Positions 950 through 14,256 are shown, counted from the stretch's first letter. The stretch: DNA of 64,000 nucleotides from Thermoplasmata archaeon (GCA_021162065.1 JAGGZK010000042.1:506-64505), one strand, 5' to 3'. A program made the numbers and translations. The notes: generated by a model from the sequence alone, not told the origin.

Positions 950-1738
950 TTAATTATCTCTTCTGAATTTTTTTAATATATTTTCCGGAGCACCTGCGAT
1001 TTTCACCAGAGATTGGGCTTCCATAAAGTGCATATCTCCGGGGATAACAATGCAGTGGGGTGGGGAGCCAAAATCCTCCTTCATCAGATCCTTAATATAT
1101 CCTGCTCTTATCATGGCATCGTTGCTGGATGCCCTGGCAACCACAGCTATGAGAGTATCTGCAGAAATTATTCCCTCTCCCTTTCTCCTCTCCATTTCCA
1201 GCAGTATTTCCATTCCCTCATTGGCGGTCATGGGCTTCTCGCCTATGTCCAGCAACAGAAGCGTGTGAAGCCCGGCCTTCACATTTTCCTTTATCCTGTC
1301 GTAGGGGGAAAGAGGGAAGTAGTTTTCATAGGGCCTTGCTATGCTTACCACCCTTCCGAATTTGTAAATCTGCAATCCGAGCAATCCGGCGGAGGCGGTG
1401 ATTATGCTTATTCCATGTATTAGGCTCGTTTCTATTCCCTCCTCCATCGCTCTGAGTCGAAGTTCCACATGGGTTGTTGCCATCATGGGATCTCCTGGAA
1501 CAAGAAGACATACATCCATTTCTTTTGCCTCCTCTATAATTTTGCCTCCTTCTTCCACCTCCTCCCTGCTCAGTATTTCCACCTTTTTCCCAATCATCTC
1601 TTCCAGTTTTTTCATATCCATATCCATAACACTGGTGTAGAGTTCCATATACACCCTGTCGCATTTTCTTGCCATCTCAAGCCCTTTAAGGGTGATGTCT
1701 CTCTCGTCATGCAAACCAATTCCAACGAATGCGAGCAT
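950..1738 (-). CDS. dph5: Diphthine synthase (diphthamide biosynthesis methyltransferase)
   Basis: MLAFVGIGLHDERDITLKGLE N-terminus and tetrapyrrole-methylase-like fold motifs typical of archaeal DphB. Start set at the second Met (the track ORF starts 5 codons earlier at 1753). Confidence 0.8.
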   Translation of the reverse strand: MLAFVGIGLHDERDITLKGLEMARKCDRVYMELYTSVMDMDMKKLEEMIGKKVEILSREEVEEGGKIIEEAKEMDVCLLVPGDPMMATTHVELRLRAMEEGIETSLIHGISIITASAGLLGLQIYKFGRVVSIARPYENYFPLSPYDRIKENVKAGLHTLLLLDIGEKPMTANEGMEILLEMERRKGEGIISADTLIAVVARASSNDAMIRAGYIKDLMKEDFGSPPHCIVIPGDMHFMEAQSLVKIAGAPENILKKFRRDN

Positions 1739-1772
1739 AAATGGTATATACACACCTCATTTTTATAGGATT

Positions 1773-2762
1773 GTGAAATGTCATTGCGTTATAGTGACGA
1801 AGGAGAAAGCCGAGGAGGTGAGACGCAAACTTGTTGATGAGGATTTGCTGGTTATGGGCTTAAGAATAAAAAGAGATGAGAAAAACGTTTATTTTCCGGT
1901 TAAAAAAAAGGTGGATATGGATGGCTGTTTTTCCTCCATGGAGGATTTTGAGGAGATTGGCAAGAAAAGTTATCTCGATATCCTCAAAGCAGCTGGCATA
2001 AGGCCAGAATCTATCTCCATAGATTTCATCGGCTCCATAGCTCTCCTGAGAATGAAGGACGAGTCCGTTGCTATAAAGGTGGCGGAGGCCCTTCTGGAAA
2101 CCAACAGAAATGTGAGAACCGTATGTCTCGACGGGGGGGTGGAGGGCGACTACAGGGTGAGAAATGTGGAGGTAATAGCAGGTGAGAAAAAAACAGAGGC
2201 CATTCATAGAGAATACGGCCTGAGAATCAAACTGGACGTGGCAAAAACATACTTCTCGCCCCGCCTTGCCACAGAGCGAATAAGGGTGGCGAAGCAGGTG
2301 GCGGAGGGAAGCGTTGTTGTAGACATGTTTGCAGGAGTTGCCCCCTTTAGCCTTGTTATCGCCAAATATGCCCGGCCATCGAAAATCTATGCCATAGATG
2401 TGAATCCCTATGCTGTCAGATATGCAAGGGAGAATGTGATGCTGAATGGCATGGCAGGAATAATAGAGGTTATTGAGGGGGATGCAAAGTATGTGATAAA
2501 AAAGTTACCCCATGCCAATCACATAATAATGAATCTTCCCCATAGTAGTTTTCATTTTCTGCCGGATGCCATCGGAAAAGGGGACATAATCCACTATTAT
2601 GAGATAATGGAAAGGGGGAGGGAAAAGGAGAGAATTGATGAGATATGCGGAGTTGCCAGAGAGCATGGGTTTGAAATAGAGGTAAAAAATCTGAGAGTGG
2701 TTGGAAGTTATTCGCCCTCGAAACAGAAAATGGGAATGGAGCTATATGTGAAGCCCATCTAA
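1773..2762 (+). CDS. trm5: tRNA (guanine37-N1)-methyltransferase Trm5 / Taw2 family
   Basis: Strong similarity to M. jannaschii Trm5b: VVVDMFAGVAPFS, YAIDVNP, IIMNLP, IHYYEI. The track ORF begins at 1692 inside dph5. The alignment indicates a GTG start at 1773 (VKCHCVIVTKEKAEEVRRKL matches the Trm5 N-terminus), giving 329 aa. Confidence 0.8.
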   Translation: MKCHCVIVTKEKAEEVRRKLVDEDLLVMGLRIKRDEKNVYFPVKKKVDMDGCFSSMEDFEEIGKKSYLDILKAAGIRPESISIDFIGSIALLRMKDESVAIKVAEALLETNRNVRTVCLDGGVEGDYRVRNVEVIAGEKKTEAIHREYGLRIKLDVAKTYFSPRLATERIRVAKQVAEGSVVVDMFAGVAPFSLVIAKYARPSKIYAIDVNPYAVRYARENVMLNGMAGIIEVIEGDAKYVIKKLPHANHIIMNLPHSSFHFLPDAIGKGDIIHYYEIMERGREKERIDEICGVAREHGFEIEVKNLRVVGSYSPSKQKMGMELYVKPI

Positions 2763-3794
2763 GTTTTCCAGTGCCTCTGTAAGGAGTTTTATGCTCTCTT
2801 CCAGATCATTCATGCTTATCACCTCCACTCCGGAATGCATGTATCTTGTTGGAACACTTATCACTCCCGAAGGTATGCCCTCCCTCGTTATGTGGATCAC
2901 CGCAGCATCTGTCGTTCCTCCCTCCGAGACCTCCATCTGATATTTTATTTTCCTCTTCTTTGCCACATTTTCCAGCCATCTTACAACAGAAGGATGGGAA
3001 ATCAATCCTCTGCCCGACGCATCTGCTACTGTGATGACAGCCCCTTCATCCAGTTTTATCTGCGAATTCCTTTCCTCCACTCCGGGATGGTCGCCCGCCA
3101 CCGCCACCTCGCACACTATGGCAACATCGGGATTCAATGAGAAGGCAGATGTCCTTGCTCCCTTCAGACCAACTTCCTCCTGAACTGTGCCGACAGCATA
3201 TATGGTAGCATTTCCCCTGTATCTCTTCACTGCTTCAATCATCATGGTTATGCCCACTCTATCATCCAAGGATTTTCCAGTCACCCTGTTGTTCGCAAGC
3301 CTCCTTATATCCATATCCAGTGTTATTGGGGTGCCTACCTTTATTCCCTTCCTTTCCACCTCCTCCCTGCTTTTTGCCCCTATGTCGATGAACATGTCCT
3401 CTGCCTTTATGGCTGATTTTTTGCCATCATCCTTCATCATATGGGGTGGTTTGCTTCCTATGACTCCGTATATTTTTCCTTTTTCTCCGTGAAGAATGAC
3501 CCTGGAATTGAGAAGCGTTGGATCATACCATCCTCCGAATTTCACAAACCTTATGAATCCATTTTTGTCTATATTCTTCACCACAAGCCCTATTTCATCC
3601 ATGTGGGCCGCCAGCATCACCGAGGGCTTTTTCCCCTTTTTGATGGCAATCAGATTCCCCATGCTATCGGTGCGGAACTCGTCCACATGGTCCTCCAGTT
3701 CCTCCCTTATTATCTCCCTTATCTTCTCCTCATAACCAGACGTTCCATGAGCATTTGCAAGTTTTTTCAGAAGGGAATAGGTTGAGTGTGCCAT
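2742..3794 (-). CDS. M42 family metallo-aminopeptidase (TET / FrvX-like)
   Basis: 350 aa. The N-terminus LLKKLANAHGTSGYEEKIREII, AAHMDEIGL and the dinuclear-metal ligand pattern are typical of TET aminopeptidases. Confidence 0.8.
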   Translation of the reverse strand: MAHSTYSLLKKLANAHGTSGYEEKIREIIREELEDHVDEFRTDSMGNLIAIKKGKKPSVMLAAHMDEIGLVVKNIDKNGFIRFVKFGGWYDPTLLNSRVILHGEKGKIYGVIGSKPPHMMKDDGKKSAIKAEDMFIDIGAKSREEVERKGIKVGTPITLDMDIRRLANNRVTGKSLDDRVGITMMIEAVKRYRGNATIYAVGTVQEEVGLKGARTSAFSLNPDVAIVCEVAVAGDHPGVEERNSQIKLDEGAVITVADASGRGLISHPSVVRWLENVAKKRKIKYQMEVSEGGTTDAAVIHITREGIPSGVISVPTRYMHSGVEVISMNDLEESIKLLTEALENLDGLHI

Positions 3795-4329: not shown

Positions 4330-4594
4330 TTTTCCCTCTTTTTTATTTTTGTGATGATGGAAATGATGAATTTGAATTCCCAATCAACAATGAAAAATGA
4401 ATGAATTTAGGATTCTCCATTAAAATAAGACATCATAAAATCGAAATTTGTTTTCCAAAAAATGTGAGAATGATGTTGTAAATGCATTGGAAAATGAAAA
4501 TATTGAGGGTCCTTTGAAATTCAAACCTAAGAGAAGAAAACAACACCCCCAAAAAATCGACATCGTTGGTTGAAAAATAAGATAAGGCCAGTAG

Positions 4595-4668
4595 CGGGCT
4601 CGGGGGGATTCGAACCCCCGGCCAACAGGTTAAGAGCCTGTCGCTCTACCTAGCTGAGCTACGAGCCC
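4595..4668 (-). tRNA. tRNA-Lys (anticodon CUU)
   Basis: The reverse complement folds as a canonical cloverleaf: acceptor GGGCUCG/CGAGCCC, D-arm GCUC-AGCUAGGUA-GAGC, anticodon stem ACAGG/CCUGU with loop CUCUUAA (CUU), T-arm GGGGG-UUCGAAU-CCCCC. 74 nt, CCA not encoded. Confidence 0.85.
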
Positions 4669-4698: not shown

Positions 4699-5607
4699 TT
4701 GATGATGGCATGGAAATGTTTCATGAACCCTCTCTATATTGGGAACATTTGGATGATGAATCTGCAGGATACCAAAATCAAAAAATTCTTAAACACTCCC
4801 TTTATAGTTCTTAAGATGAAGGTGACCCTGCTCCTTTTGACCATAAATCTATTCTTGGCCATAACTGGAATATTTTTGTTCAGGGAGAGCAGGGTGAAAA
4901 ATATAAGATATGTGGATTTTCCCCAGCTGATAGCCCTCGGAATTCTTTTCATAACCGTATCCATTCTTTTCCTTGTATCCGTAAAGATAGACCCCATTGT
5001 CGATGCCAGATTTGGACTGGATTTCACACGGAAGATATACAATATGGAGGGGGACATAGTGGCCCTCTTCCAGACCATCCAGAATCCGGTGCTGGATTAC
5101 TATTTCGCCTTCGTTTACATGATAGGTTTTCCTTTTCTGATATACTTTACGCCCATCCTCTACATAATATCCAAGGATGTGGATTCCCTGAAATTTGCTG
5201 TCGTTGGATATGCCATAGCCATAGCCATAGCCCTTCCCTTTCTGCTGTTTTTCCCTGTGCACGATACATGGTGGACAAGCCAGAATTATGGATGGTATGA
5301 AGGGACGGAAATTCATTTTCGCCTTGAGGAGATATGGCCCAGTGTGGTGGAAGTATTTTTTAAATTCACCACTTTGAACAACTGCTTTCCGAGCATGCAT
5401 TCCGCCCTCTCCGCCCTCATGGCATATACGGCGTGGATAAGGAATTACAGGAGATACAAGTATGTGGCTCTTGCTCTCGCAATCTCCATTCCAATAGCCA
5501 CCCTCTATCTGGGAATACACTGGCTCACGGACGTCATAGGAGGTGAGGCGGTGGCCCTCATCTCCGTGGTGCTGGCCATGAAAATAACGGGAGTAAAATG
5601 GATATAG
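4699..5607 (+). CDS. PAP2-superfamily (type 2 phosphatidic acid phosphatase-like) polytopic membrane protein
   Basis: Multiple TM helices. PSMHSA (PSGH-like) and LGIHWLTDVIGG (H...D) motifs resemble PAP2 motifs 2 and 3. TTG start in the track, so the true start is uncertain. Confidence 0.5.
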   Translation: MMMAWKCFMNPLYIGNIWMMNLQDTKIKKFLNTPFIVLKMKVTLLLLTINLFLAITGIFLFRESRVKNIRYVDFPQLIALGILFITVSILFLVSVKIDPIVDARFGLDFTRKIYNMEGDIVALFQTIQNPVLDYYFAFVYMIGFPFLIYFTPILYIISKDVDSLKFAVVGYAIAIAIALPFLLFFPVHDTWWTSQNYGWYEGTEIHFRLEEIWPSVVEVFFKFTTLNNCFPSMHSALSALMAYTAWIRNYRRYKYVALALAISIPIATLYLGIHWLTDVIGGEAVALISVVLAMKITGVKWI

Positions 5608-6737
5608 CATGGTTTACCGATACATGGCTCCCTAATCGGGATGGAGTCGTTACCTCCCTCCTTTCCTTTCGCGGGGAAATGGAGAGAAGGGGGCATAACA
5701 TATACATATTTGCACCTGGAGAAAGTGATGGCAGAGAGGGTAACGTATTTTACTATAAAAGCAGGACCTTTCCTCCCTACCCTCAGTATAAATTTCCCAC
5801 TCCCCTTTCCCTTTTCTCCAGAAGAACAGTCAGGGCGATAAAAAAAATGAATGTGGACATAATCCATTCCCATTCTCCCGGAATAACAGGACTGCATGGA
5901 AGGATTGCAGCAAATAAGGCTGGAATTCCATTATTCTTCACCTTTCACACCTTCATAGACGACTCCGTATATCTCCTTTTCCGCAACAAATCTCTGCAGA
6001 ATGCTACAAAGCAATTCATCTATCGATGGCTCAGAATTTACACCCATCCATGCAGATGCATCATAGTTCCCAGCCCATATGTGAAAAGACGCCTTGCAGA
6101 GATAATCCCAAATGCAAGATTTGAAATTGTGCCTACGGGGATAGATCTGAAAAGATTTGAAGGAGGCGACGGGAGAAAAATAAAGGAGAAATTTCCTGAT
6201 AAAAAAATAATTCTCCACGTTGGAAGGGTGGTAAGGGAGAAAAATATCGAACTCATCATAAAGGCGGCTCCCCATATACTCAAAAAAATCGATGCCGTAT
6301 TTGTCATTGTCGGAGAAGGCCCTCACAAAGACATGCTTGAAAAAATGGTGAAGGAAAAACATCTCTCCCCTCATTTCATATTCACCGGCTTTGTCGATGA
6401 CCGGGAACTGATGGATTACTATAAGGCAGCAGATGTATTCGCCTTCCCTTCCAAATATGAAACGCAGGGTCTTGTGGCCCTGGAGGCGATGGCGGCGGGC
6501 GTGCCGGTTGTGGCCGCCCGTGAGAAGGCCCTTCCGGATTTCGTAAGGGATGGAGAAAATGGATATCTTGCGGATGCAGATGATGAAATGGAGTTCGCCG
6601 AGAAAATCATGAGGGCGATGGAGGAAAGGGATGTGATGGCGAGGGCAAGGAAGTTCGTTATGGATTACAGCATAGAGCGGATGGCCGAGAAACTGGAGGA
6701 GGTGTATGAGAAATATGGAGATAAAATGCAGGATTGA
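5598..6737 (+). CDS. Glycosyltransferase family 4 (GT-B, group 1 glycosyl transferase)
   Basis: N-terminus MDIAWFTDTWLPNRDGV, and C-terminal FPSKYETQGLVALEAMAAGVPVVA (EX7E-type motif). Overlaps the PAP2 gene by 10 bp. Confidence 0.85.
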   Translation: MDIAWFTDTWLPNRDGVVTSLLSFRGEMERRGHNIYIFAPGESDGREGNVFYYKSRTFPPYPQYKFPTPLSLFSRRTVRAIKKMNVDIIHSHSPGITGLHGRIAANKAGIPLFFTFHTFIDDSVYLLFRNKSLQNATKQFIYRWLRIYTHPCRCIIVPSPYVKRRLAEIIPNARFEIVPTGIDLKRFEGGDGRKIKEKFPDKKIILHVGRVVREKNIELIIKAAPHILKKIDAVFVIVGEGPHKDMLEKMVKEKHLSPHFIFTGFVDDRELMDYYKAADVFAFPSKYETQGLVALEAMAAGVPVVAAREKALPDFVRDGENGYLADADDEMEFAEKIMRAMEERDVMARARKFVMDYSIERMAEKLEEVYEKYGDKMQD

Positions 6738-6948
6738 GGTGGAATGCGGGAGCAGGAGAGAGGCGGAGATATTGAACAGGACATTGAGGGTGGATAACGA
6801 AGGCTATATCTCAAGCAGCGTTGCCGGAAAAGTACTGGTGGCTGAGGTGGAAGAAAATAACGCCATGTCTCTTCTTCATACCATAAATGATTTCCTCTCC
6901 TGTCTGCAGCTCGCCGTGGAGGGCATGAAAAGGTTGAAGGGCATTTAA
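6715..6948 (+). CDS. pcc1: KEOPS complex subunit Pcc1-like small protein
   Basis: 77 aa. The pattern IEVECGSRREAEILNRTL...VAEVEENNAMSLLHTINDFLSCLQLAV matches archaeal Pcc1 (IELGS.E.A..I..S..PE...V.VEA.D..ALRATVNSFLRWI). Confidence 0.6.
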   Translation: MEIKCRIEVECGSRREAEILNRTLRVDNEGYISSSVAGKVLVAEVEENNAMSLLHTINDFLSCLQLAVEGMKRLKGI

Positions 6949-6984: not shown

Positions 6985-8574
6985 ATGCCAAAATACATCG
7001 TGGTGACAGGAGGGGTTTTATCTGGGCTCGGCAAGGGAATAGTTACCTCATCCATAGGTTTTCTTCTGAAAAATAAGGGATATAAAATAACGGCAATAAA
7101 AATAGACCCCTATCTCAACTGCGATGCCGGCACCATGAACCCATTCCAGCATGGAGAGGTTTTCGTTCTCGATGACGGAGGAGAGGTGGATCTGGACCTT
7201 GGCAACTATGAGCGTTTCATGGACATAAATCTGGGGAGGGATAACAACATAACCACTGGCAAAGTCTACAGGAATGTCATCGAGAAGGAGAGAAGGGGCG
7301 ACTACCTCGGCAAGACGGTGCAGATTGTCCCCCACATAACCAACGAGATAAAGGACTGGATAAGGAGGGTTGCCAAGGAAAGTGGGGCCGACATATGTGT
7401 GATAGAGATAGGCGGAACCGTGGGCGATATAGAGTCGATGCCCTTTCTGGAGGCGGTGAGGCAGCTTTATCTTGAGGAGGGGAGCGACAACGTTGTTTTT
7501 GTCCACACAACCCTCGTGCCGATACTGAAGGTGGTGGGGGAGCAGAAGACGAAGCCGACCCAGCATAGTGTGAAGGAACTGAGAGCCATAGGTATTTCCC
7601 CCGACATAATAGTGGCCCGCTCTCCCGTGCCCTTAGACAAATCCACAAGAGAGAAGATATCCCTCTTCTGTAATGTTCCTTCCGATGCGGTCATTTCCTC
7701 GCCGGATGTGGAATGCATCTATGAGGTGCCACTCATGCTTCAGGAGCAGGGGATAACAAAGCACATCCTTTCAAAACTCTCCCTTCCGTATAGGGAGGCA
7801 AAACTTGAGGAATGGAAGAAGTTTGTTGAAAAGGTTAAGAACGGGAGAAACAGGGTGAGAATAGCCATGGTGGGGAAATACACCGCCCTGGGAGATTCAT
7901 ATATAAGCATACTGGAAGCATTTCGCCATGCGGCGGCGGAAGTGGATGCAAAGGTGGAGGTGGTGTGGATAGAGGCAGAGGAGATAGAGGAGGGGAAGAA
8001 AATTGAGGATGTGGACGGAATACTGGTGCCGGGAGGTTTTGGAGAAAGGGGTGCAGAGGGCAAGATAAGGGCAATAGAGTTTGCCAGAGAGAACAAAATT
8101 CCCTTCCTCGGCATATGCTTTGGCTTTCAGCTTGCGGTGGTGGAATATGGCAGGAACGTGCTTGGTCTGGAGTGCCACTCCACGGAGATAAAGCCGAATG
8201 TAAAGCATCCCATCATCACCATCCTTCCCGAACAGTATGGAGTGGAGCAACTGGGCGGCACCATGCGTCTCGGCTCGCAGCCAATCACCATAAAGGAAGG
8301 GACACTTGCCCATTCCCTTTACGGAAAGAAAAAGATATATGAAAGGCATCGCCATCGCTATGAGGTGAACCCTGAGTATATAGATGAACTGGAGGGCAAA
8401 GGTCTAATTTTCTCGGGTATTGCGGAGGACAGGATAAGGATGGAGATTCTGGAGTTGCCAGAGCATCCATATTTCATAGCCTCCCAGTTTCATCCGGAGT
8501 TCAAATCCCGTCCTCTTAAACCAGCACCGCTCTTTTATGGATTCATAAAAGCAAGTGTGGAGAATAAGAGATAA
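6985..8574 (+). CDS. pyrG: CTP synthase
   Basis: [19 protein letters not shown]...[13 protein letters not shown] and a C-terminal class I glutamine amidotransferase domain (GICFGFQ, HPEF). Confidence 0.95.
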
Positions 8575-8575
8575 A

Positions 8576-9241
8576 ATGGCATACAGACTGGTGGCCTTTG
8601 ACATGGATGGCACTCTTCTGAAGGAAAGAACCATATTCCGTTTGGCGGAGGAGCGGGGTTTTGTTAACAAATTGAGGGAGATAATAGATGGGAAAAAATT
8701 CGGTTATGAGAAGACGATTGAAATCGCAAAATTTTTGAGGGGAATGGAAGTGGGGGAACTGCTGAAAATCTTCAGGGGGATACCTTTAAGGGAGAATGCC
8801 GATGAAGTGGTTAAGGAACTTAAGAAAAGAGATGTGATAACCGCTATAATAAGCAACAGTTATGACCTCGTTGTTAATGACCTCAAAAAAAGGTTGGGCA
8901 TGGATTATGCCTTTGCCAATACACTTGTGGTGGAAGATGGATTCATAACGGGGGAGGTGATTCCCCACAACAGAAATCTTGAGAAAAAATTCCCGGAATG
9001 CAGAATCCACTCCATATGCAAGAGAGATGTTTTCCTTTCCCTTTGCAGGGACATGGGTATTGACGCAAGAAATGCCATGGCTGTTGGGGATGGAGAGGTG
9101 GATATATGTATGCTCAGGGCAGCAGGGCTGGGGGTGGCGATAGGCGAAAATGAAAGGGTAAAAAGGGAGGCGAATGTTGTCATAGAAAATCTTATGGAAA
9201 TATTAAAATATGTGGATGGGGGTGAGGAGCATGGACATTAA
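8576..9241 (+). CDS. HAD-IB phosphoserine phosphatase (SerB)-like hydrolase
   Basis: FDMDGTLL motif I. LGMDYAFANTLVVEDGFITGEV and AVGDGEVDICMLRAAGLGVAIG closely parallel the M. jannaschii PSP (MJ1594). Start at the second Met. Confidence 0.75.
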   Translation: MAYRLVAFDMDGTLLKERTIFRLAEERGFVNKLREIIDGKKFGYEKTIEIAKFLRGMEVGELLKIFRGIPLRENADEVVKELKKRDVITAIISNSYDLVVNDLKKRLGMDYAFANTLVVEDGFITGEVIPHNRNLEKKFPECRIHSICKRDVFLSLCRDMGIDARNAMAVGDGEVDICMLRAAGLGVAIGENERVKREANVVIENLMEILKYVDGGEEHGH

Positions 9242-10430
9242 GCAGGAAGAGGTAACTACTCTCCATGAAATAAACATAAAAAGGGAAAATATCCTGAGCA
9301 AGGTGGAGGAGATATCGCAGGAAAGAAGGATATCCATCATAATGCCCATGCTTTACTCCGAATTGAAGAACGATGCCATAAAAAATATAATGAAGGGGCT
9401 GGGCAAGCTGAGATTTCACGGGGATATAATAATACCGCTATCGGCAAAAAATGAACATGAATTTGAGCATGTGAAGAAATTTTTTTCCGGCATGAAACAG
9501 GAGCATTACATAATATGGTGCAATGGCCCAAGGATAACAAGTTTTCTCGAGGATTTGAAGGAGGAAGGGATAAAGGCGATAAAGTATGAAGGTAAGGGAA
9601 GGGATGTGTGGATTGCCATGGGTGTGGCGACTCTCAACTCCTACGCCATAGCATTTCACGATGCGGATATAAGAACATACGACGAGATGATTCCCGCCAA
9701 ACTTCTCTTTCCCATACTCGAACCCAAACTGGATTTCAAATTCAGCAAGGGATATTATGCCAGAGTGAATCTGGAGACGGGAACCATATACGGGAGAGTT
9801 TTCCGCCTGTTTCTTCATCCTCTGCTCAAGGCTCTGGAGAATGAGATAGGTTATGAGCCCGATTTCCTGAATTTTCTGAGGGGCTTCAGGTATCCTCTGG
9901 CTGGGGAGTTTGCCATGACAAAGGATGTTGCCATAGACGTGGATATGCCGGGGGACTGGGGGATAGAGATAGGGGTGCTTGCCGAGATATACAGGAATGT
10001 GGCGAGAAAAAGAATCTGTCAGGTTGATCTCGGCATGTATGAGCACAAGCACCAGATTATGGGGGATAGAGAGAAGGGGCTCATAAGGATGGTGAGAGAT
10101 ATATTCAAAACCCTGCTGAGGGTACTGATTGAGGAGGACCACATCCAGGTATCGGAGGCGTTTCTTACCTCCCTGAGCGTCATATATCAGAGAGTTGCTC
10201 AGGACGCCATAAGGCAGTATCATGCAGACGCCATATTCAACTCCCTCAATTATGATAGGCATGAAGAGGAGAGCATGATGGAGAAGTTCAGCCGTCATAT
10301 TCTTGATGCGGGAATGGAATATCTGAGAAAGCCGATTGGCTCAAGGATACCGGATTGGCTGAGAACCATATCCGCAAAGAGAAAGGTGAGAGAGGAACTT
10401 TTTGAAATAGTGGTGGAAGAGAATGAGTGA
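9231..10430 (+). CDS. Retaining GT-A glycosyltransferase resembling mannosyl-3-phosphoglycerate synthase (MpgS, GT55-like)
   Basis: The motif order matches P. horikoshii MpgS: IMPMLYSE / GKGRDVWIAMGVA / FHDADIRTYDEMIP (DxD) / GEFAMTKDV...GWGIEIGVLAEI. Remembered alignment only. Confidence 0.5.
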   Translation: MDIKQEEVTTLHEINIKRENILSKVEEISQERRISIIMPMLYSELKNDAIKNIMKGLGKLRFHGDIIIPLSAKNEHEFEHVKKFFSGMKQEHYIIWCNGPRITSFLEDLKEEGIKAIKYEGKGRDVWIAMGVATLNSYAIAFHDADIRTYDEMIPAKLLFPILEPKLDFKFSKGYYARVNLETGTIYGRVFRLFLHPLLKALENEIGYEPDFLNFLRGFRYPLAGEFAMTKDVAIDVDMPGDWGIEIGVLAEIYRNVARKRICQVDLGMYEHKHQIMGDREKGLIRMVRDIFKTLLRVLIEEDHIQVSEAFLTSLSVIYQRVAQDAIRQYHADAIFNSLNYDRHEEESMMEKFSRHILDAGMEYLRKPIGSRIPDWLRTISAKRKVREELFEIVVEENE

Positions 10431-11601
10431 TTCAGAAAAGGCAGATATAGTTGTGGGAATTTTATGCAAAAATGTTGAGGCAACAATACTTCATGTTATG
10501 AATGTGGTGAACGATGGGTTGCACAGATACTTTTCAGAACACAAAAAGGCGATGGTGGTGAGCGACGGCTATTCTTCAGACAGAACAAAGGAACTGGCGG
10601 AACTGTTTCAACCCTATGAAGGAGTGAAGAAGATAATAACTTACGACAGGGAGCGGGGGGGAAAGGGCGGAGGGGTGAAAACCGTCCTTGCCATTGCGCA
10701 ACAGATGGATGCGAAGGTTGTCATTCTGCTTGATGGCGATTTGCTCAGCATAAGGCCCGAGTGGATATATGAGCTGGCAGCTCCCATTTTATATGGGCGT
10801 GCGGATTTGATGGTTCCATACTACATAAGGGACAAATATGATGGGGTGATAACCAATAACCTGGTATATCCATTCACCCGGGCATTATATGGTATAGACA
10901 TAAGACAACCCATCGCAGGAGAGTATGGGTTATCGAAGAAACTTTACGAGATGCTTCTCTCCCATCCTCTTTTTCCTCTGGATTTTGGGGTGGATATATT
11001 TATTGTCACCTCAGCGGCAGCCAGCAGAATGAGGATAATGGAGGGCATATTTTCCCTAAAAATTCATGAGTCCACGACCCATTATCTGGAGCCGGAGGAG
11101 TTGCTTCTTCCCATGTTCAGACAGGTTACTGGCACCATGTTCAAACTTGCGGAATATTATGAAGATTTCTGGAGAAATAACGGAAGCATATTTCATCACA
11201 ATACTGTGAACGAGTTCAACGGAAAAAAGCCGGTTCCGGTGAGAATAGATATGGAGAGGATGCGGAATTCTTTCAGAGAAGAATTTCTGAGATGGCAGGG
11301 AATAATAAAAAAAATTCTCCCGGAAGGAATAATGAAAAGGCTTGGTGATATGGACGGCGGGACGATAAAAAATCTTGACAGCGGCACCTGGGCGGAGATT
11401 GTGTATAACTTTGCCGCCGCTTATAAAAAAGCGGAGGAGAAGGAGAAAATCCTAGATGCCCTCAAAAGTCTATGGCTCGGTAGATTTCTCAGCTATGCCA
11501 TGGAAACGGAGAAGATGGACCTGATGGATGCGGAAAGGTTGATACAGGAACAGGCAAGAATATTTGAGGAAAAAAGGGAGTATCTTTTATCCATATACTG
11601 A
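10423..11601 (+). CDS. Glucosyl-3-phosphoglycerate synthase-like GT-A glycosyltransferase (GpgS, GT81-like)
   Basis: VGILCKNVEATI, GKGGGVKTVLAIAQQMDAKVVILLDGDL (DxD) and AGEYGLSKKLYEML...FGVDIFIV parallel mycobacterial GpgS blocks (PALNEEATI, GKGEALW...FIDSDL, SGEYAASRELL...YGVEIGLLID). Confidence 0.5.
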   Translation: MSDSEKADIVVGILCKNVEATILHVMNVVNDGLHRYFSEHKKAMVVSDGYSSDRTKELAELFQPYEGVKKIITYDRERGGKGGGVKTVLAIAQQMDAKVVILLDGDLLSIRPEWIYELAAPILYGRADLMVPYYIRDKYDGVITNNLVYPFTRALYGIDIRQPIAGEYGLSKKLYEMLLSHPLFPLDFGVDIFIVTSAAASRMRIMEGIFSLKIHESTTHYLEPEELLLPMFRQVTGTMFKLAEYYEDFWRNNGSIFHHNTVNEFNGKKPVPVRIDMERMRNSFREEFLRWQGIIKKILPEGIMKRLGDMDGGTIKNLDSGTWAEIVYNFAAAYKKAEEKEKILDALKSLWLGRFLSYAMETEKMDLMDAERLIQEQARIFEEKREYLLSIY

Positions 11602-11633
11602 TGAAAGTAGGGGCATTCTCCTGTAAAAATGAG

Positions 11634-11648
11634 AAATTTATATAAAAT
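11634..11648 (+). promoter_or_regulatory. Putative TATA box/BRE for the beta-helix surface protein gene, followed by a GGTGA Shine-Dalgarno near 11692
   Basis: AAATTTATATAAAAT about 55-65 bp upstream of the ATG at 11702. GAGAGGTGAAAAG sits immediately before the start. Confidence 0.3.
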
Positions 11649-11701
11649 ATTTTTTTATTTGAGGAAAAAAGATATTTAAAATAGCTGAGAGAGGTGAAAA
11701 G

Positions 11702-13693
11702 ATGAAGAAAATTTTAGTGTTTGGAATGATGTTGGTGTTTCTTATTGCTCTAAGAAGCAATGCCAACGGGGCACCGAGCACTGTATATGTTGATGATGAC
11801 TGGGCCGGGCTGCCAAACGGAACCGTGGTCAGCGGGCATATCATCGGCACCGATGCCTTTGCCTCCATCCAGGATGCGGTGAATGCTGTTGCAAGTGGAG
11901 GCACCGTATATGTCTGGAATGGAACATATAATGAGAATATAGACGTGACGAAGAGCGTTAGCATCATAGGCAATGAATCAGCAAGTTGTATAGTAAAGGC
12001 GGCGGATAATGCTGATTCTGTTTTTTGGGTGAATGCAGACCAGGTCACTATATCTGGACTTAATATCACAGGTGGAAGCAGAGGAGTTTTATTGCGTAGC
12101 GATACAGATTACTGCAACGTCTCCAATAACATCCTGTATAACAATGGATGGGGCATTGGAGTATTTGGTATAATTGGAGGAAGCACAACACTCTCTTACA
12201 TGGCCGATCATAATGTAATAATGAACAACACCATTTCACATAATGAGGAAGGAATATGGATGTATAAAGCCCAGTATAACAAGATAAAAGGAAACATAAT
12301 TTCATATAATACAAACAGGGGAATACACATGGATACCTACTCGAGATATAATTTGATAATCAATAATTACATCAGAAACAATCAATATGGAATCAGAATC
12401 GAAGATTCAACACCAACATCTATAGATAACCAGATATACAATAATTGTATTTATCACAATACTTATAACGCCAATGACACCTGCAGCAACATATGGAGTA
12501 TCTCAAAAACTGCAGGTCCCAATATAGTCGGTGGCCCATGGTTGGGCGGCAACTATTGGGGAGACTATGTGGGGACTGACGTCGATGGTGACGGAATAGG
12601 AGACACCCCATATACCATTCCCGATGGAGATAATCAAGATCAGTTCCCGTTAACAACTTCAATTTCCAATGTTAATAAGAACAAGTATTATCTCACGATA
12701 CAGGATGCAATAGATGATGCAAATGATGGCGAGATTGTTGTGGTTCATGACGGAGTTTACAGGGAAAATGTGAATATTGACAAAAGCATCACTCTGAAAA
12801 ATGGCTCAAAGCCGGTTATAGATGGAATGGGTGACATTGCAATAAATATCACCGCCAATAATGTGACCATAGAAGGATTTAACATAACCAACTCAAGTTG
12901 TGGTATAAAGTGCATCACCTCCGGCCTCCACATTCTCAACAATACACTCTACAACTGCAGTTATGGCATTGTTTTACTGCATTCCGACCACAATTACGTT
13001 TACAACAATAATATAAGTGGCGTGATTGCAGAGGATGCATGCGGCATTTATCTAGATTATGTGAACGATAGTACGTTCATAAACAACAGCATATTTGATT
13101 ACAGAATGGTTACAGGAAGCGCATGCGGCATCTATCTCGGATATTCCAGCAACAACACCTTTGATGGCGTATATATCCATAAACTGGATCTTGCAGTCCA
13201 GGTCGACTATGGAATATATATGAAAGAGGCAAATAATAATGCTCTTGAGGGCATCGAAATATGTGATTTGCATGGAGAATATGGATATGGAATCTATATC
13301 CAGAATTCGGATAACAATACCTTCAACGATTCGTATATTCATGACATAGATTCAACAGAGGGATATGCATTTTACTCCGACGAATGGGGCAGCAACAATT
13401 CTATATACAATATGACCGTCGCCAGTTATCTAACAACCATCTCCTTCACATACGGCAATGGAATCGCCCTGAATGGCGTGGACAATCCACATTCATCAAC
13501 TATGGCTTCTATACGCAAGTATGTGGAAATATATAACATGACCACAAACTCCTGGATAAATCTCACCATCAATTACACCGATGATGATGCTTACGGTGTA
13601 ACTGAGGAAACCATTGGCCTTTATCACTGGAACGAAACCACAGAAACATGGGAGGAAGTGGAGGCAAACCTGGACACAACCAGAACAGAATAA
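11702..13693 (+). CDS. Secreted right-handed parallel beta-helix repeat (NosD/pectate-lyase-like) protein
   Basis: Signal peptide MKKILVFGMMLVFLIALRSNANGAP. Many 20-25-aa repeats with N/G/I periodicity (NNTISHNEEGIWMY, NIISYNTNRGIHMD, IRNNQYGIRIED). 663 aa. Confidence 0.6.
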   Translation: MKKILVFGMMLVFLIALRSNANGAPSTVYVDDDWAGLPNGTVVSGHIIGTDAFASIQDAVNAVASGGTVYVWNGTYNENIDVTKSVSIIGNESASCIVKAADNADSVFWVNADQVTISGLNITGGSRGVLLRSDTDYCNVSNNILYNNGWGIGVFGIIGGSTTLSYMADHNVIMNNTISHNEEGIWMYKAQYNKIKGNIISYNTNRGIHMDTYSRYNLIINNYIRNNQYGIRIEDSTPTSIDNQIYNNCIYHNTYNANDTCSNIWSISKTAGPNIVGGPWLGGNYWGDYVGTDVDGDGIGDTPYTIPDGDNQDQFPLTTSISNVNKNKYYLTIQDAIDDANDGEIVVVHDGVYRENVNIDKSITLKNGSKPVIDGMGDIAINITANNVTIEGFNITNSSCGIKCITSGLHILNNTLYNCSYGIVLLHSDHNYVYNNNISGVIAEDACGIYLDYVNDSTFINNSIFDYRMVTGSACGIYLGYSSNNTFDGVYIHKLDLAVQVDYGIYMKEANNNALEGIEICDLHGEYGYGIYIQNSDNNTFNDSYIHDIDSTEGYAFYSDEWGSNNSIYNMTVASYLTTISFTYGNGIALNGVDNPHSSTMASIRKYVEIYNMTTNSWINLTINYTDDDAYGVTEETIGLYHWNETTETWEEVEANLDTTRTE

Positions 13694-14256
13694 ATGCAAA
13701 CCTCACATCCTTCAGCGAGTATGGAGTGTTTGCCACGGAAATGAATGTGAGCATCCATCTCTTCAATCCATGGAATCTGATAACGGTGCCGGTAAATGTC
13801 TCGCTTACTGCAAAATCTCTGGCGGAATTGATAGACGGATGCATGGTGATAACCCGATGGGATGCGGAAAAGCAGCGCTATTATGATTACATTGTCGGCA
13901 TAGATACCCCGGGCAACCCTGACTTTGATATAGAAGATGGCATTGCCTATTTTGTTGGTGTGAAATATCCCACATGGCTCAACATGACCGGGCAGCCCAT
14001 AGAGAACATAAGCATTGCATTGAAGCCGGGCTTAGATGCCATAGGATGGACCGATGCTGGCATAACAACGGCAGAAGATTTCGGAGGAAACATAGATAGC
14101 TGTGTTTACGTTGTCAAATGGAATGAGACATCGCAGGAATTTGAGACGCATATGGTTGGCACGGTGCCCAACAATAACTTTGCCATGGAGACAGGTAGGG
14201 GTGTATTCGTCTACATAGAGGGAAGCAGCGACGTGATGTGGTACGGCGGGAGATAA
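13648..14256 (+). CDS. Hypothetical protein, possibly the C-terminal domain of the preceding beta-helix protein separated by a frameshift
   Basis: Overlaps the 11702 ORF by 46 bp in another frame. It has no signal peptide but carries a WNETSQEFE motif that echoes WNETTETWEE at the end of the upstream ORF. Alternative start MNVS at 13741. Confidence 0.4.
   Translation: MGGSGGKPGHNQNRINANLTSFSEYGVFATEMNVSIHLFNPWNLITVPVNVSLTAKSLAELIDGCMVITRWDAEKQRYYDYIVGIDTPGNPDFDIEDGIAYFVGVKYPTWLNMTGQPIENISIALKPGLDAIGWTDAGITTAEDFGGNIDSCVYVVKWNETSQEFETHMVGTVPNNNFAMETGRGVFVYIEGSSDVMWYGGR

Follow-up and report, generated by a model that had tools for sequence, protein, structure and literature searches.

Three consecutive genes in DNA of an uncultured marine-sediment archaeon of the Thermoplasmata probably constitute an operon for the synthesis of glucosylglycerate (GG), with two routes to the one solute and an enzyme of the HAD-IB type in the phosphatase slot, a reading to which we assign a probability of about 0.6. 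The genes lie in a 64-kb stretch (GCA_021162065.1, JAGGZK010000042.1:506-64505), termed the window, and are referred to as open reading frames ORF1, ORF2 and ORF3 (Table 1). In the first route ORF2's glucosyl-3-phosphoglycerate synthase (GpgS) would join NDP-glucose and 3-phospho-D-glycerate to give glucosyl-3-phosphoglycerate (GPG), and the product of the upstream, translationally coupled ORF1 would strip the phosphate from GPG to leave GG. In the second route the ORF3 enzyme, which resembles glucosylglycerate synthase (GgS), would glycosylate free D-glycerate in one step to the same product. The HAD-IB enzyme keeps the Asp/Lys catalytic core with the residues reading the amino and carboxylate groups of phosphoserine replaced, and is proposed to represent a non-orthologous displacement of the canonical MpgP-type HAD-IIB glucosyl-3-phosphoglycerate phosphatase (GpgP). 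We infer the substrates, the sugar donor and the product, and which phosphatase acts on what, from the family-level gene identities, the fold, the conserved residues and the synteny of the cluster.

The original prediction had placed three consecutive overlapping genes downstream of pyrG, and their coordinates on the plus strand and overlaps are confirmed, with ORF1 and ORF2 sharing 11 nt (9231-9241) and ORF2 and ORF3 sharing 8 nt (10423-10430). The end of pyrG at 8574 is separated from the start of ORF1 at 8576 by a spacer of 1 nt. Gene starts are those of independent calls on identical public contigs (the Thermoplasmata archaeon metagenome-assembled genome (MAG) GCA_054010735.1 and two metagenome assemblies); a further possible start of ORF1 is the GTG at 8555, and the mechanical ORF of ORF2 opens at 9210 with the called start at 9231. 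Hydropathy gives no hydrophobic segment in ORF1, ORF2 or ORF3. The wider claim of a compatible-solute locus for a glycosyl-glycerate is supported, as is the presence of a SerB-family HAD-IB enzyme instead of an MpgP/GpgP-type HAD-IIB enzyme. Both downstream proteins are of the GT-A type and have their relatives among the retaining glycosyltransferases that act on glycerate and phosphoglycerate, as had been claimed.

ORF2 is a member of the GpgS family

By sequence ORF2 is a GpgS at the family level. The protein matches the NCBIfam model NF040724 (GpgS_Meth, EC 2.4.1.266) over model positions 1-398 of 402 with 541.5 bits and an E value of 1e-162, the curated equivalog cut-off being 700, and homologues at 74% identity carry the GpgS name at NCBI and JGI. 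The nearest solved structures, from actinobacteria, are mycobacterial GpgS (E 4e-12), with the alignment spanning the GT-A core, and the Rubrobacter mannosyl-3-phosphoglycerate synthase (MpgS) of GT81. The GT-A motifs are intact with K122, D144 and D146 invariant in 14 sequences and the GKGRD and HDADI stretches conserved. No Pfam family is matched at E<=0.01, hence none to the Pfam MpgS (GT55) family (PF09488), and the PDB yields no match to P. horikoshii MpgS or another GT55 MpgS at E<=1. Since ORF2 matches the GpgS model end to end, has its nearest structures in GT81 and shows no match to GT55, the label "MpgS-like (GT55)" given earlier to the middle gene is wrong.

ORF3 has the predicted fold of a single-step glycerate glycosyltransferase

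The AlphaFold (AF2) model of ORF3, built on 57 homologues, has a predicted local distance difference test (pLDDT) score of 88.8 and its best fold match is the mannosylglycerate synthase (MGS) of Rhodothermus marinus, which superposes over the full length including the C-terminal helical domain with template modeling (TM) scores of 0.73-0.78. The match to GpgS structures is restricted to the GT-A domain. The ORF3 family profile searched against the PDB also has MGS as its top match (E 3.8e-5), and similarity to the GT81 GpgS enzymes is distant (PRK13915, E 7e-11). Between ORF3 and ORF2 the similarity is remote with only the common P-x-AGE-Y/F motif found by BLASTP. The earlier description of the third gene as GpgS-like (GT81) is thus retained as a distant relationship, but the closest structure and profile are those of MGS and not of a second GpgS. 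A single match by hhalign between the ORF3 and GpgS families (alignment A2 columns 5-47 against A1 columns 363-405) is discarded as an artefact of over-long or fused ORF3 gene calls with N-terminal extensions derived from the C terminus of the upstream GpgS. Fusions of the GgS-like domain with Usp and TrkA-N domains do exist (P0264, P0267).

Residues K81, D104-x-D106, R136, D140, T144 and H215 are invariant in the 57 homologues and I143 is nearly so. In the profile alignment with MGS, K81 corresponds to K76, D104 and D106 to D100 and D102, R136 to R131, D140 to D135, and I143-T144 to I138-T139. The main chain of I138 and the side chain of T139 bind the carboxylate of D-glycerate in MGS, and K76, D100 and D102 form part of its conserved catalytic and metal network (PMC2581804). 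H215, which lies outside the aligned stretch, may be the counterpart of the Mn-binding H217 of MGS. The model and alignment thus describe ORF3 as a probably soluble GT-A enzyme with the metal-site and glycerate-carboxylate-site residues of the single-step glycerate glycosyltransferases.

Several homologues of ORF3 are named "glucosylglycerate synthase" by JGI and NCBI, and PMC8790579 places a Thermococcus gene with this annotation in GT81. One report mentions in a single sentence that the Thermoprofundales (MBG-D) gained GGS at their root (PMC9585477). The characterized GgS enzymes of Persephonella marina and Petrotoga are not among the ORF3 homologues from the representative search, the clusters of 20 representatives or the Thermococcus-seeded search.

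Many pipeline names of homologues read "glycosyltransferase involved in cell wall biosynthesis", and ORF3 has weak matches to PF00535 (35.7 bits) and to AglJ. These, together with the PAP2 gene and the glycolipid-type GT4 gene a few genes upstream, could be read as the marks of a GT2-type enzyme of glycan or lipid glycosylation unrelated to the solute, with the pathway then formed by the HAD enzyme and GpgS only. Such a role is highly improbable, as ORF3 has no transmembrane segment (maximum 19-residue hydropathy, KD19, 1.49), the polyprenyl-phosphate GT2 enzymes Dol-P-Man synthase and ArnC/GtrB give TM scores of 0.40-0.45 against 0.73-0.78 for MGS, and in the genome scan described below the gene directly follows GpgS in nearly all of the 80 species. 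ORF3 as a polyprenyl-phosphate sugar transferase is rejected on the TM scores and hydropathy, and the membership of dolichyl-phosphate GT2 families considered in the original prediction is not borne out in substance, the PF00535 match being weak and the match to MGS extending over the full length.

The original prediction suggested a sequential route of the mannosylglucosylglycerate (MGG) type. The end product of such a route would be a diglycosyl-glycerate (MGG or glucosylglucosylglycerate), with ORF3 attaching a further hexose to GPG or GG and the HAD enzyme taking the phosphate off the diglycoside. P. marina accumulates glucosylglucosylglycerate (reference in PMC5381378), and two transferases with one phosphatase is the gene count of the phosphorylating MGG route, but its MggA and the MggS of the other route are GT4 enzymes (PMC3736172). 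ORF3 is a GT-A protein with the full-length fold and the carboxylate-binding Thr and Arg of the glycerate-accepting MGS, and the MggS model NF041101 is not among its NCBIfam matches. Some relatives have an extra GT4 gene between GpgS and ORF3, but it is absent from the operon in the window. GT4 is a family of the GT-B fold, and for the second transferase of glucosylglucosylglycerate we know of no assignment. In a Chloroflexi locus an MggS-like GT4 gene (NF041101, E 2.6e-75) is placed directly upstream of the ORF3 homologue. The acceptor of MggS is GG (PMC3736172), and this pairing fits ORF3 as a maker of GG and not a consumer. The sequential route is given little credence, and two alternative routes to the same product appear to be the better reading.

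The inserted GT4 gene occurs between GpgS and the ORF3 homologue in about ten loci. It encodes a 395-residue protein on the opposite strand after GpgS (L017:2380-3567 (-), also L018, L024, L030, L035, L040, L044, L050 and L052); L052 is without a GgS-like gene, and the other loci have the GT4 gene between GpgS and the GgS-like gene. The protein does not match the MggS model, and its role in the lineages concerned might be to elongate GG to a diglycoside.

ORF3-family genes are also found outside the phylum. In Pyrococcus furiosus (L084, CP003685.1:1630428-1643585) and in loci L086, L167 and L168 the gene is accompanied by one or two iolG-like oxidoreductases of the GFO/IDH/MocA type and often by glycogen phosphorylase, with no GpgS.

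ORF1 is a phosphoserine phosphatase-like enzyme with altered specificity residues

ORF1 belongs to Pfam families PF00702/PF12710 and its best match in the PDB is the phosphoserine phosphatase (PSP) of Methanocaldococcus jannaschii (E 1e-28). The score against the HAD-IB model TIGR01488 is 67.1 bits, over the cut-off of 45, which bears out the earlier description as a PSP-like HAD-IB protein. To the MpgP/GpgP-type HAD-IIB enzymes there is only a fragmentary match (NF001218, E 7.8e-4, 19 bits). Residues were read from an alignment of 51 orthologues with M. jannaschii PSP and are given in the numbering of that enzyme. HAD motifs I-IV are intact across the orthologues with D11, D13, T15, S/T99, K144, D167 and D171 invariant. 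E20 is replaced by Arg in 50 of the 51 and R56 by Ile in 48, the window protein being included in both cases. In PSP structures E20 holds the amino group of phosphoserine and R56 its carboxylate. Further changes in the clade are G100 to Asp or Asn, N170 to Val or Ile, and an insertion of 11 residues before the motif-III Lys. The single-sequence AlphaFold model of ORF1 (pLDDT 42) is unusable, and no statement on the cap is drawn from it.

ORF1 could be the phosphoserine phosphatase (SerB) of the organism, parked beside a 3-phosphoglycerate-consuming enzyme or pyrG for regulatory or historical reasons, with GPG handled by an unlinked enzyme. The best named matches are indeed SerB models and the M. 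jannaschii PSP structure, and the catalytic core is intact; furthermore, 22 of 72 GpgS loci are without the HAD gene, so that an unlinked GpgP must exist in some lineages at least. However, the score of 117.4 bits against the serB model TIGR00338 is under the cut-off of 144.15, the E20, R56, G100 and N170 replacements run across the clade, and linkage with GpgS persists across genomic contexts (64 of 77 reciprocal cases, see below). With E20 and R56 lost, ORF1 is judged from its sequence unlikely to be a genuine SerB, and we consider an assignment as the SerB of the organism quite improbable.

Conservation of gene order and the phosphatase slot

The gene order was followed in a genome scan with the GpgS alignment, taking one genome per species, which gave 80 loci of which 72 have enough upstream sequence. 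All the loci but one are from Thermoplasmatota, the scan patterns being too specific to reach M. burtonii and P. marina. In nearly all 80 species the gene that directly follows GpgS is an ORF3 homologue. The HAD gene is located directly upstream of GpgS in 50 of the 72 species-level loci despite differing genes further upstream, and a median of 10 nt (range -70 to +30, n=53) separates the HAD stop from the start of GpgS. Dozens of species-level Thermoplasmatota genomes share the order HAD-GpgS-ORF3 while differing in the flanks, and the three-gene arrangement is far beyond chance. In a reciprocal test metagenome contigs were scanned with the HAD alignment, and GpgS lies immediately downstream of the HAD gene in 64 of the 77 assessable loci among the 80 closest homologues. 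The pairing of the HAD-IB enzyme with GpgS is therefore conserved and no peculiarity of a single genome. The one locus of the genome scan outside the Thermoplasmatota (L082, QNBN01000175.1) is deposited under a Guaymas MAG named "Spirochaetes bacterium"; its GpgS/GgS-like genes are 56-58% identical to those of Thermoplasmata, so the contig is probably mis-binned.

The partners of the HAD gene vary in an informative manner. HAD and GpgS occur without GgS in at least seven loci, and HAD and GgS occur without GpgS in two only, both metagenomic and with the order HAD-GgS-metallophosphoesterase (MPE). Three loci (L065, L077 and L081) have GpgS, a GgS-like gene and then a canonical MpgP-type HAD-IIB phosphatase, and all three are without HAD-IB. 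L065 and L081, both scanned, score 211-217 bits against the MpgP-type model TIGR01486 (cut-off 165); with these two L077 shares 64-69% identity. No locus has both HAD-IB and an MpgP-type phosphatase (Fisher p=0.026).

The MPE is a calcineurin-like protein of 200 residues with a weak YfcE-family match, encoded 15-130 nt after the GgS-like gene in 31 Thermoplasmatota species (examples in Table 1) and absent from the operon in the window. It could be a second or alternative phosphatase. HAD and MPE as mutually exclusive alternatives were considered and are not supported (odds ratio 0.375, p=0.15), and both are present in 15 genome loci. In eight metagenomic loci without either transferase the MPE gene directly adjoins the HAD gene.

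On sequence and context ORF1 is probably a non-orthologous GpgP, because its linkage is tightest with GpgS and persists without GgS, because it is missing where a canonical GpgP is present, and because there is precedent for unrelated enzymes in this step. Two unrelated forms of GpgP, HAD-like and histidine phosphatase, have been described (PMC3240985). A bacterial cluster (L169) carries a GT4 gene and, at 1265-3713, a Usp-GpgS fusion, a histidine phosphatase and a GgS-like gene. The fusion consists of a universal stress protein domain and an actinobacterial-type GpgS (NF010496, 384 bits, cut-off 262), and the histidine phosphatase has 170 residues with a PspA-type phosphoserine phosphatase as its best model. 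L169 is thus another instance in which the place of GpgP is taken by an enzyme resembling a phosphoserine phosphatase.

A different role for ORF1 would be that of a 3-phosphoglycerate (or 2-phosphoglycerate) phosphatase supplying free D-glycerate to the GgS-like enzyme, with GPG handled by the MPE, by an enzyme encoded elsewhere or by a promiscuous HAD. Phosphoserine and 3-phospho-D-glycerate differ at C2 only (NH3+ versus OH), and the residue taken to bind the amino group, E20, is the one changed to Arg in 50 of 51 orthologues. Small substrates are in general favored by C1-capped HAD-IB enzymes, the two HAD-GgS-MPE loci lack GpgS, and the separate phosphoesterase often present in the cluster could act as GpgP. 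We know of no assignment for the glycerate source of the single-step synthases (GgS/MGS). The linkage of HAD is nevertheless tightest and commonest with GpgS (median gap of 10 nt, 64 of 77), the loci with HAD and GpgS are without GgS in at least seven cases, and the three loci with a canonical GpgP keep GgS without HAD. No second phosphatase for the pathway is present in the operon or was found in the 64-kb window, and a futile 3-phosphoglycerate phosphatase would be costly. Glycerate supply is on balance an unlikely function for ORF1.

Comparison with known systems

P. marina reportedly has an operon-like ggs-gpgS-gpgP cluster with two pathways to GG. The window cluster would have the same three functions, namely a GpgS of the type of M. 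burtonii and P. marina, a GT-A synthase of the GgS type that acts in one step, and one phosphatase, and the loci L065, L077 and L081 reproduce the gene set exactly, including the MpgP-type phosphatase. The window differs in that the phosphatase is a PSP-like HAD-IB enzyme encoded upstream of gpgS and not an MpgP-type HAD-IIB enzyme, and in that the host is an archaeon of marine sediments. The gene content of the P. marina cluster is given in Table 2 of PMC5381378.

The second system for comparison is that of M. burtonii, an archaeon like the host of the window. M. burtonii is said to have a gpgS-gpgP pair, the basis of NF040724, in which an MpgP homologue serves as GpgP. ORF2 aligns end to end with the model based on the M. 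burtonii enzyme, and both systems would proceed in two steps via GPG; the differences are the MpgP-type phosphatase and the ORF2 score, which is under the equivalog cut-off (541 against 700).

The MGS of R. marinus (GT78; PDB codes 2bo4 and 2y4j) has the two-domain architecture and predicted fold of ORF3 and shares the DXD motif, Lys, Arg and carboxylate-binding Ile-Thr, and possibly also the His, which is outside the aligned stretch (PMC2581804). MGS glycosylates free D-glycerate in one step and the same is predicted for ORF3. The identity between the two is only 16-18%, however, and MGS prefers GDP-mannose and belongs to GT78, whereas the ORF3 family is labeled GgS and the Thermococcus gene so labeled is under GT81 (PMC8790579).

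In mycobacteria the GPG phosphatase GpgP (Rv2419c), partner of GpgS (Rv1208, GT81), is a histidine phosphatase, a precedent for drawing this activity from an unrelated family, here one akin to the phosphoserine phosphatases and phosphoglycerate mutases (PMC3240985). L169 couples such a GpgS and histidine phosphatase with an ORF3 homologue. The mycobacterial system differs from the window in the fold of the phosphatase and in that GG feeds methylglucose lipopolysaccharide and not (only) osmoprotection, and ORF2 is distant from its GpgS (E 4e-12). In Petrotoga mobilis and Rhodopirellula baltica the MGG pathways (GpgS, MggA and MggB; or GgS and MggS) start from GpgS or GgS and have a similar gene count, but their second transferases are GT4 enzymes (PMC3736172), of which the window operon has none, and MggS-like or other GT4 genes appear only in some relatives. 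The closest solved relative of ORF1, M. jannaschii PSP (HAD-IB, PDB code 1f5s), has identical catalytic motifs but differs in E20 and R56, both replaced in ORF1, in lacking the insertion of 11 residues before the motif-III Lys, and in that the partner gene of ORF1 is GpgS and not a gene of serine biosynthesis.

Genomic surroundings of the operon

Table 1. Positions of the operon genes, their neighbors and examples of the metallophosphoesterase gene
Feature	Position	Strand	Remarks
PAP2 phosphatase	4699-5607	+	overlaps GT4; first gene of array running into pyrG and the operon
GT4, closest to monoglucosyl-diacylglycerol synthase (183 bits)	5598-6737	+	
Pcc1/KEOPS	6706-6948	+	overlaps GT4; followed by pyrG and the operon
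pyrG (CTP synthase)	6985-8574	+	529-aa ORF; PF06418 CTP_synth_N, PF00117
ORF1, HAD-IB phosphatase, candidate GpgP	8576-9241	+	221 aa, ATG 8576; PSP-like by sequence
ORF2, GpgS of Methanococcoides burtonii type	9231-10430	+	399 aa; NF040724 match
ORF3, GgS-like single-step glycosyl-glycerate synthase (predicted)	10423-11601	+	392 aa; GT-A and C-terminal helical domain
AT-rich intergenic region with T-runs	11602-11701	+	sequence; downstream gene strain-variable
MPE examples	L031:8226-8828; L054:12558-13172; ~30 other loci		

With a spacer of a single nucleotide, pyrG is probably co-transcribed with ORF1-ORF3. The gene is found upstream of the cluster only in the closest ~12 loci, and most relatives differ, the upstream neighbors elsewhere being the beta subunit of Phe-tRNA synthetase (PheRS-beta) or thymidylate kinase. 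The PAP2-GT4 pair looks like a glycolipid module and is kept upstream in the closest relatives only. Its GT4 was considered as MggA/MggS and rejected on the closest match given in Table 1, the pairing with PAP2 and an identity of only 24-27% to the inserted GT4 of the relatives. A tRNA-Lys gene (CTT) is located at 4594-4668 (-), just before the PAP2 gene that opens the long same-strand array.

The transcription unit probably ends in the AT-rich region after ORF3, which probably also holds the promoter of the next, strain-variable gene. A NosD/parallel-beta-helix surface-type gene lies directly 3' of the operon at 11702-14256 (+), corresponding to L001:10130-12685. Contigs L002 and L003, identical in other respects, lack this gene, which puts the end of the operon at 11601. 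The 851-residue beta-helix gene of L001 is split in the window into ORFs of 663 and 202 residues by a deletion of 1 nt within a run of C near 13680, as a frameshift or as an artefact of assembly. Other phosphatases, ser genes and NDP-sugar enzymes were sought in the rest of the 64 kb, where the finds were limited to genes of housekeeping function, an ARMT1-like damage-control phosphatase and an NAD-epimerase, and no match to an MpgP-type phosphatase or a metallophosphoesterase is present anywhere in the window.

Discussion

Several observations weigh against a GG operon with two routes and ORF1 as its phosphatase. For ORF2, the score of 541 against NF040724 is below the curated equivalog cut-off of 700. 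The HAD gene is missing from 22 of the 72 species, and 13 of the 77 metagenomic HAD genes are not followed by GpgS and take HAD-MPE, HAD-GT4 or HAD-GgS forms, so the HAD enzyme is not strictly dedicated to GpgS. The anti-correlation of the HAD and MpgP-type phosphatases comes from three lineages that are related, small substrates are the usual ones for C1-capped HAD-IB enzymes, and the MPE that follows the GgS-like gene in 31 loci could be the real GpgP. The assignment of ORF3 as a putative GgS (EC 2.4.1.268) draws on pipeline names, a modeled fold, residues and context. The ORF3 family in all Thermococcales and in Chloroflexi adjoins iolG-like oxidoreductases and glycogen phosphorylase, a context that says nothing about GG and suggests a different role or substrate for this branch of the "GgS" family. 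GG is to our knowledge not known from Thermococcales or those Chloroflexi, so the acceptor or the donor may vary within the ORF3 family.

Much of the background is already known, namely the pathway, the two-route layout, the pipeline GpgS names in these MAGs and the one-sentence mention of GGS for Thermoprofundales (PMC9585477), the only mention of GGS for this group that the searchable literature yielded. The same literature yielded nothing on a conserved PSP-like HAD-IB enzyme in the phosphatase position or on a modular cluster with alternative phosphatases. As the pathway itself is known, the field is left unchanged, and the worth of the finding lies chiefly in the correction of annotations, the enzymology of HAD specificity and a prediction on the stress physiology of uncultured sediment archaea. 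Genes annotated as "phosphoserine phosphatase" in these genomes are probably misnamed.

Within one cluster family the phosphatase slot holds an MpgP-type HAD-IIB or a PSP-like HAD-IB enzyme, and possibly a metallophosphoesterase, and in the bacterial cluster built on the other GpgS type it is filled by a histidine phosphatase, which would make the slot a clean natural example of non-orthologous displacement. The ORF1-type clade, marked by R20, I56 and the insertion in front of motif III, may be an enzyme of glycerate-solute metabolism that has so far escaped notice. It could represent a new, third structural class of glucosyl-3-phosphoglycerate phosphatase or, more radically and less probably, a dedicated 3-phosphoglycerate phosphatase.

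GG is a stress solute and a primer of polysaccharides with a patchy distribution. The gene order described here points to a GG operon that is conserved in many uncultured Thermoplasmatota of sediments, and the operon offers a testable prediction of how these abundant sediment archaea would cope with osmotic or nitrogen stress.

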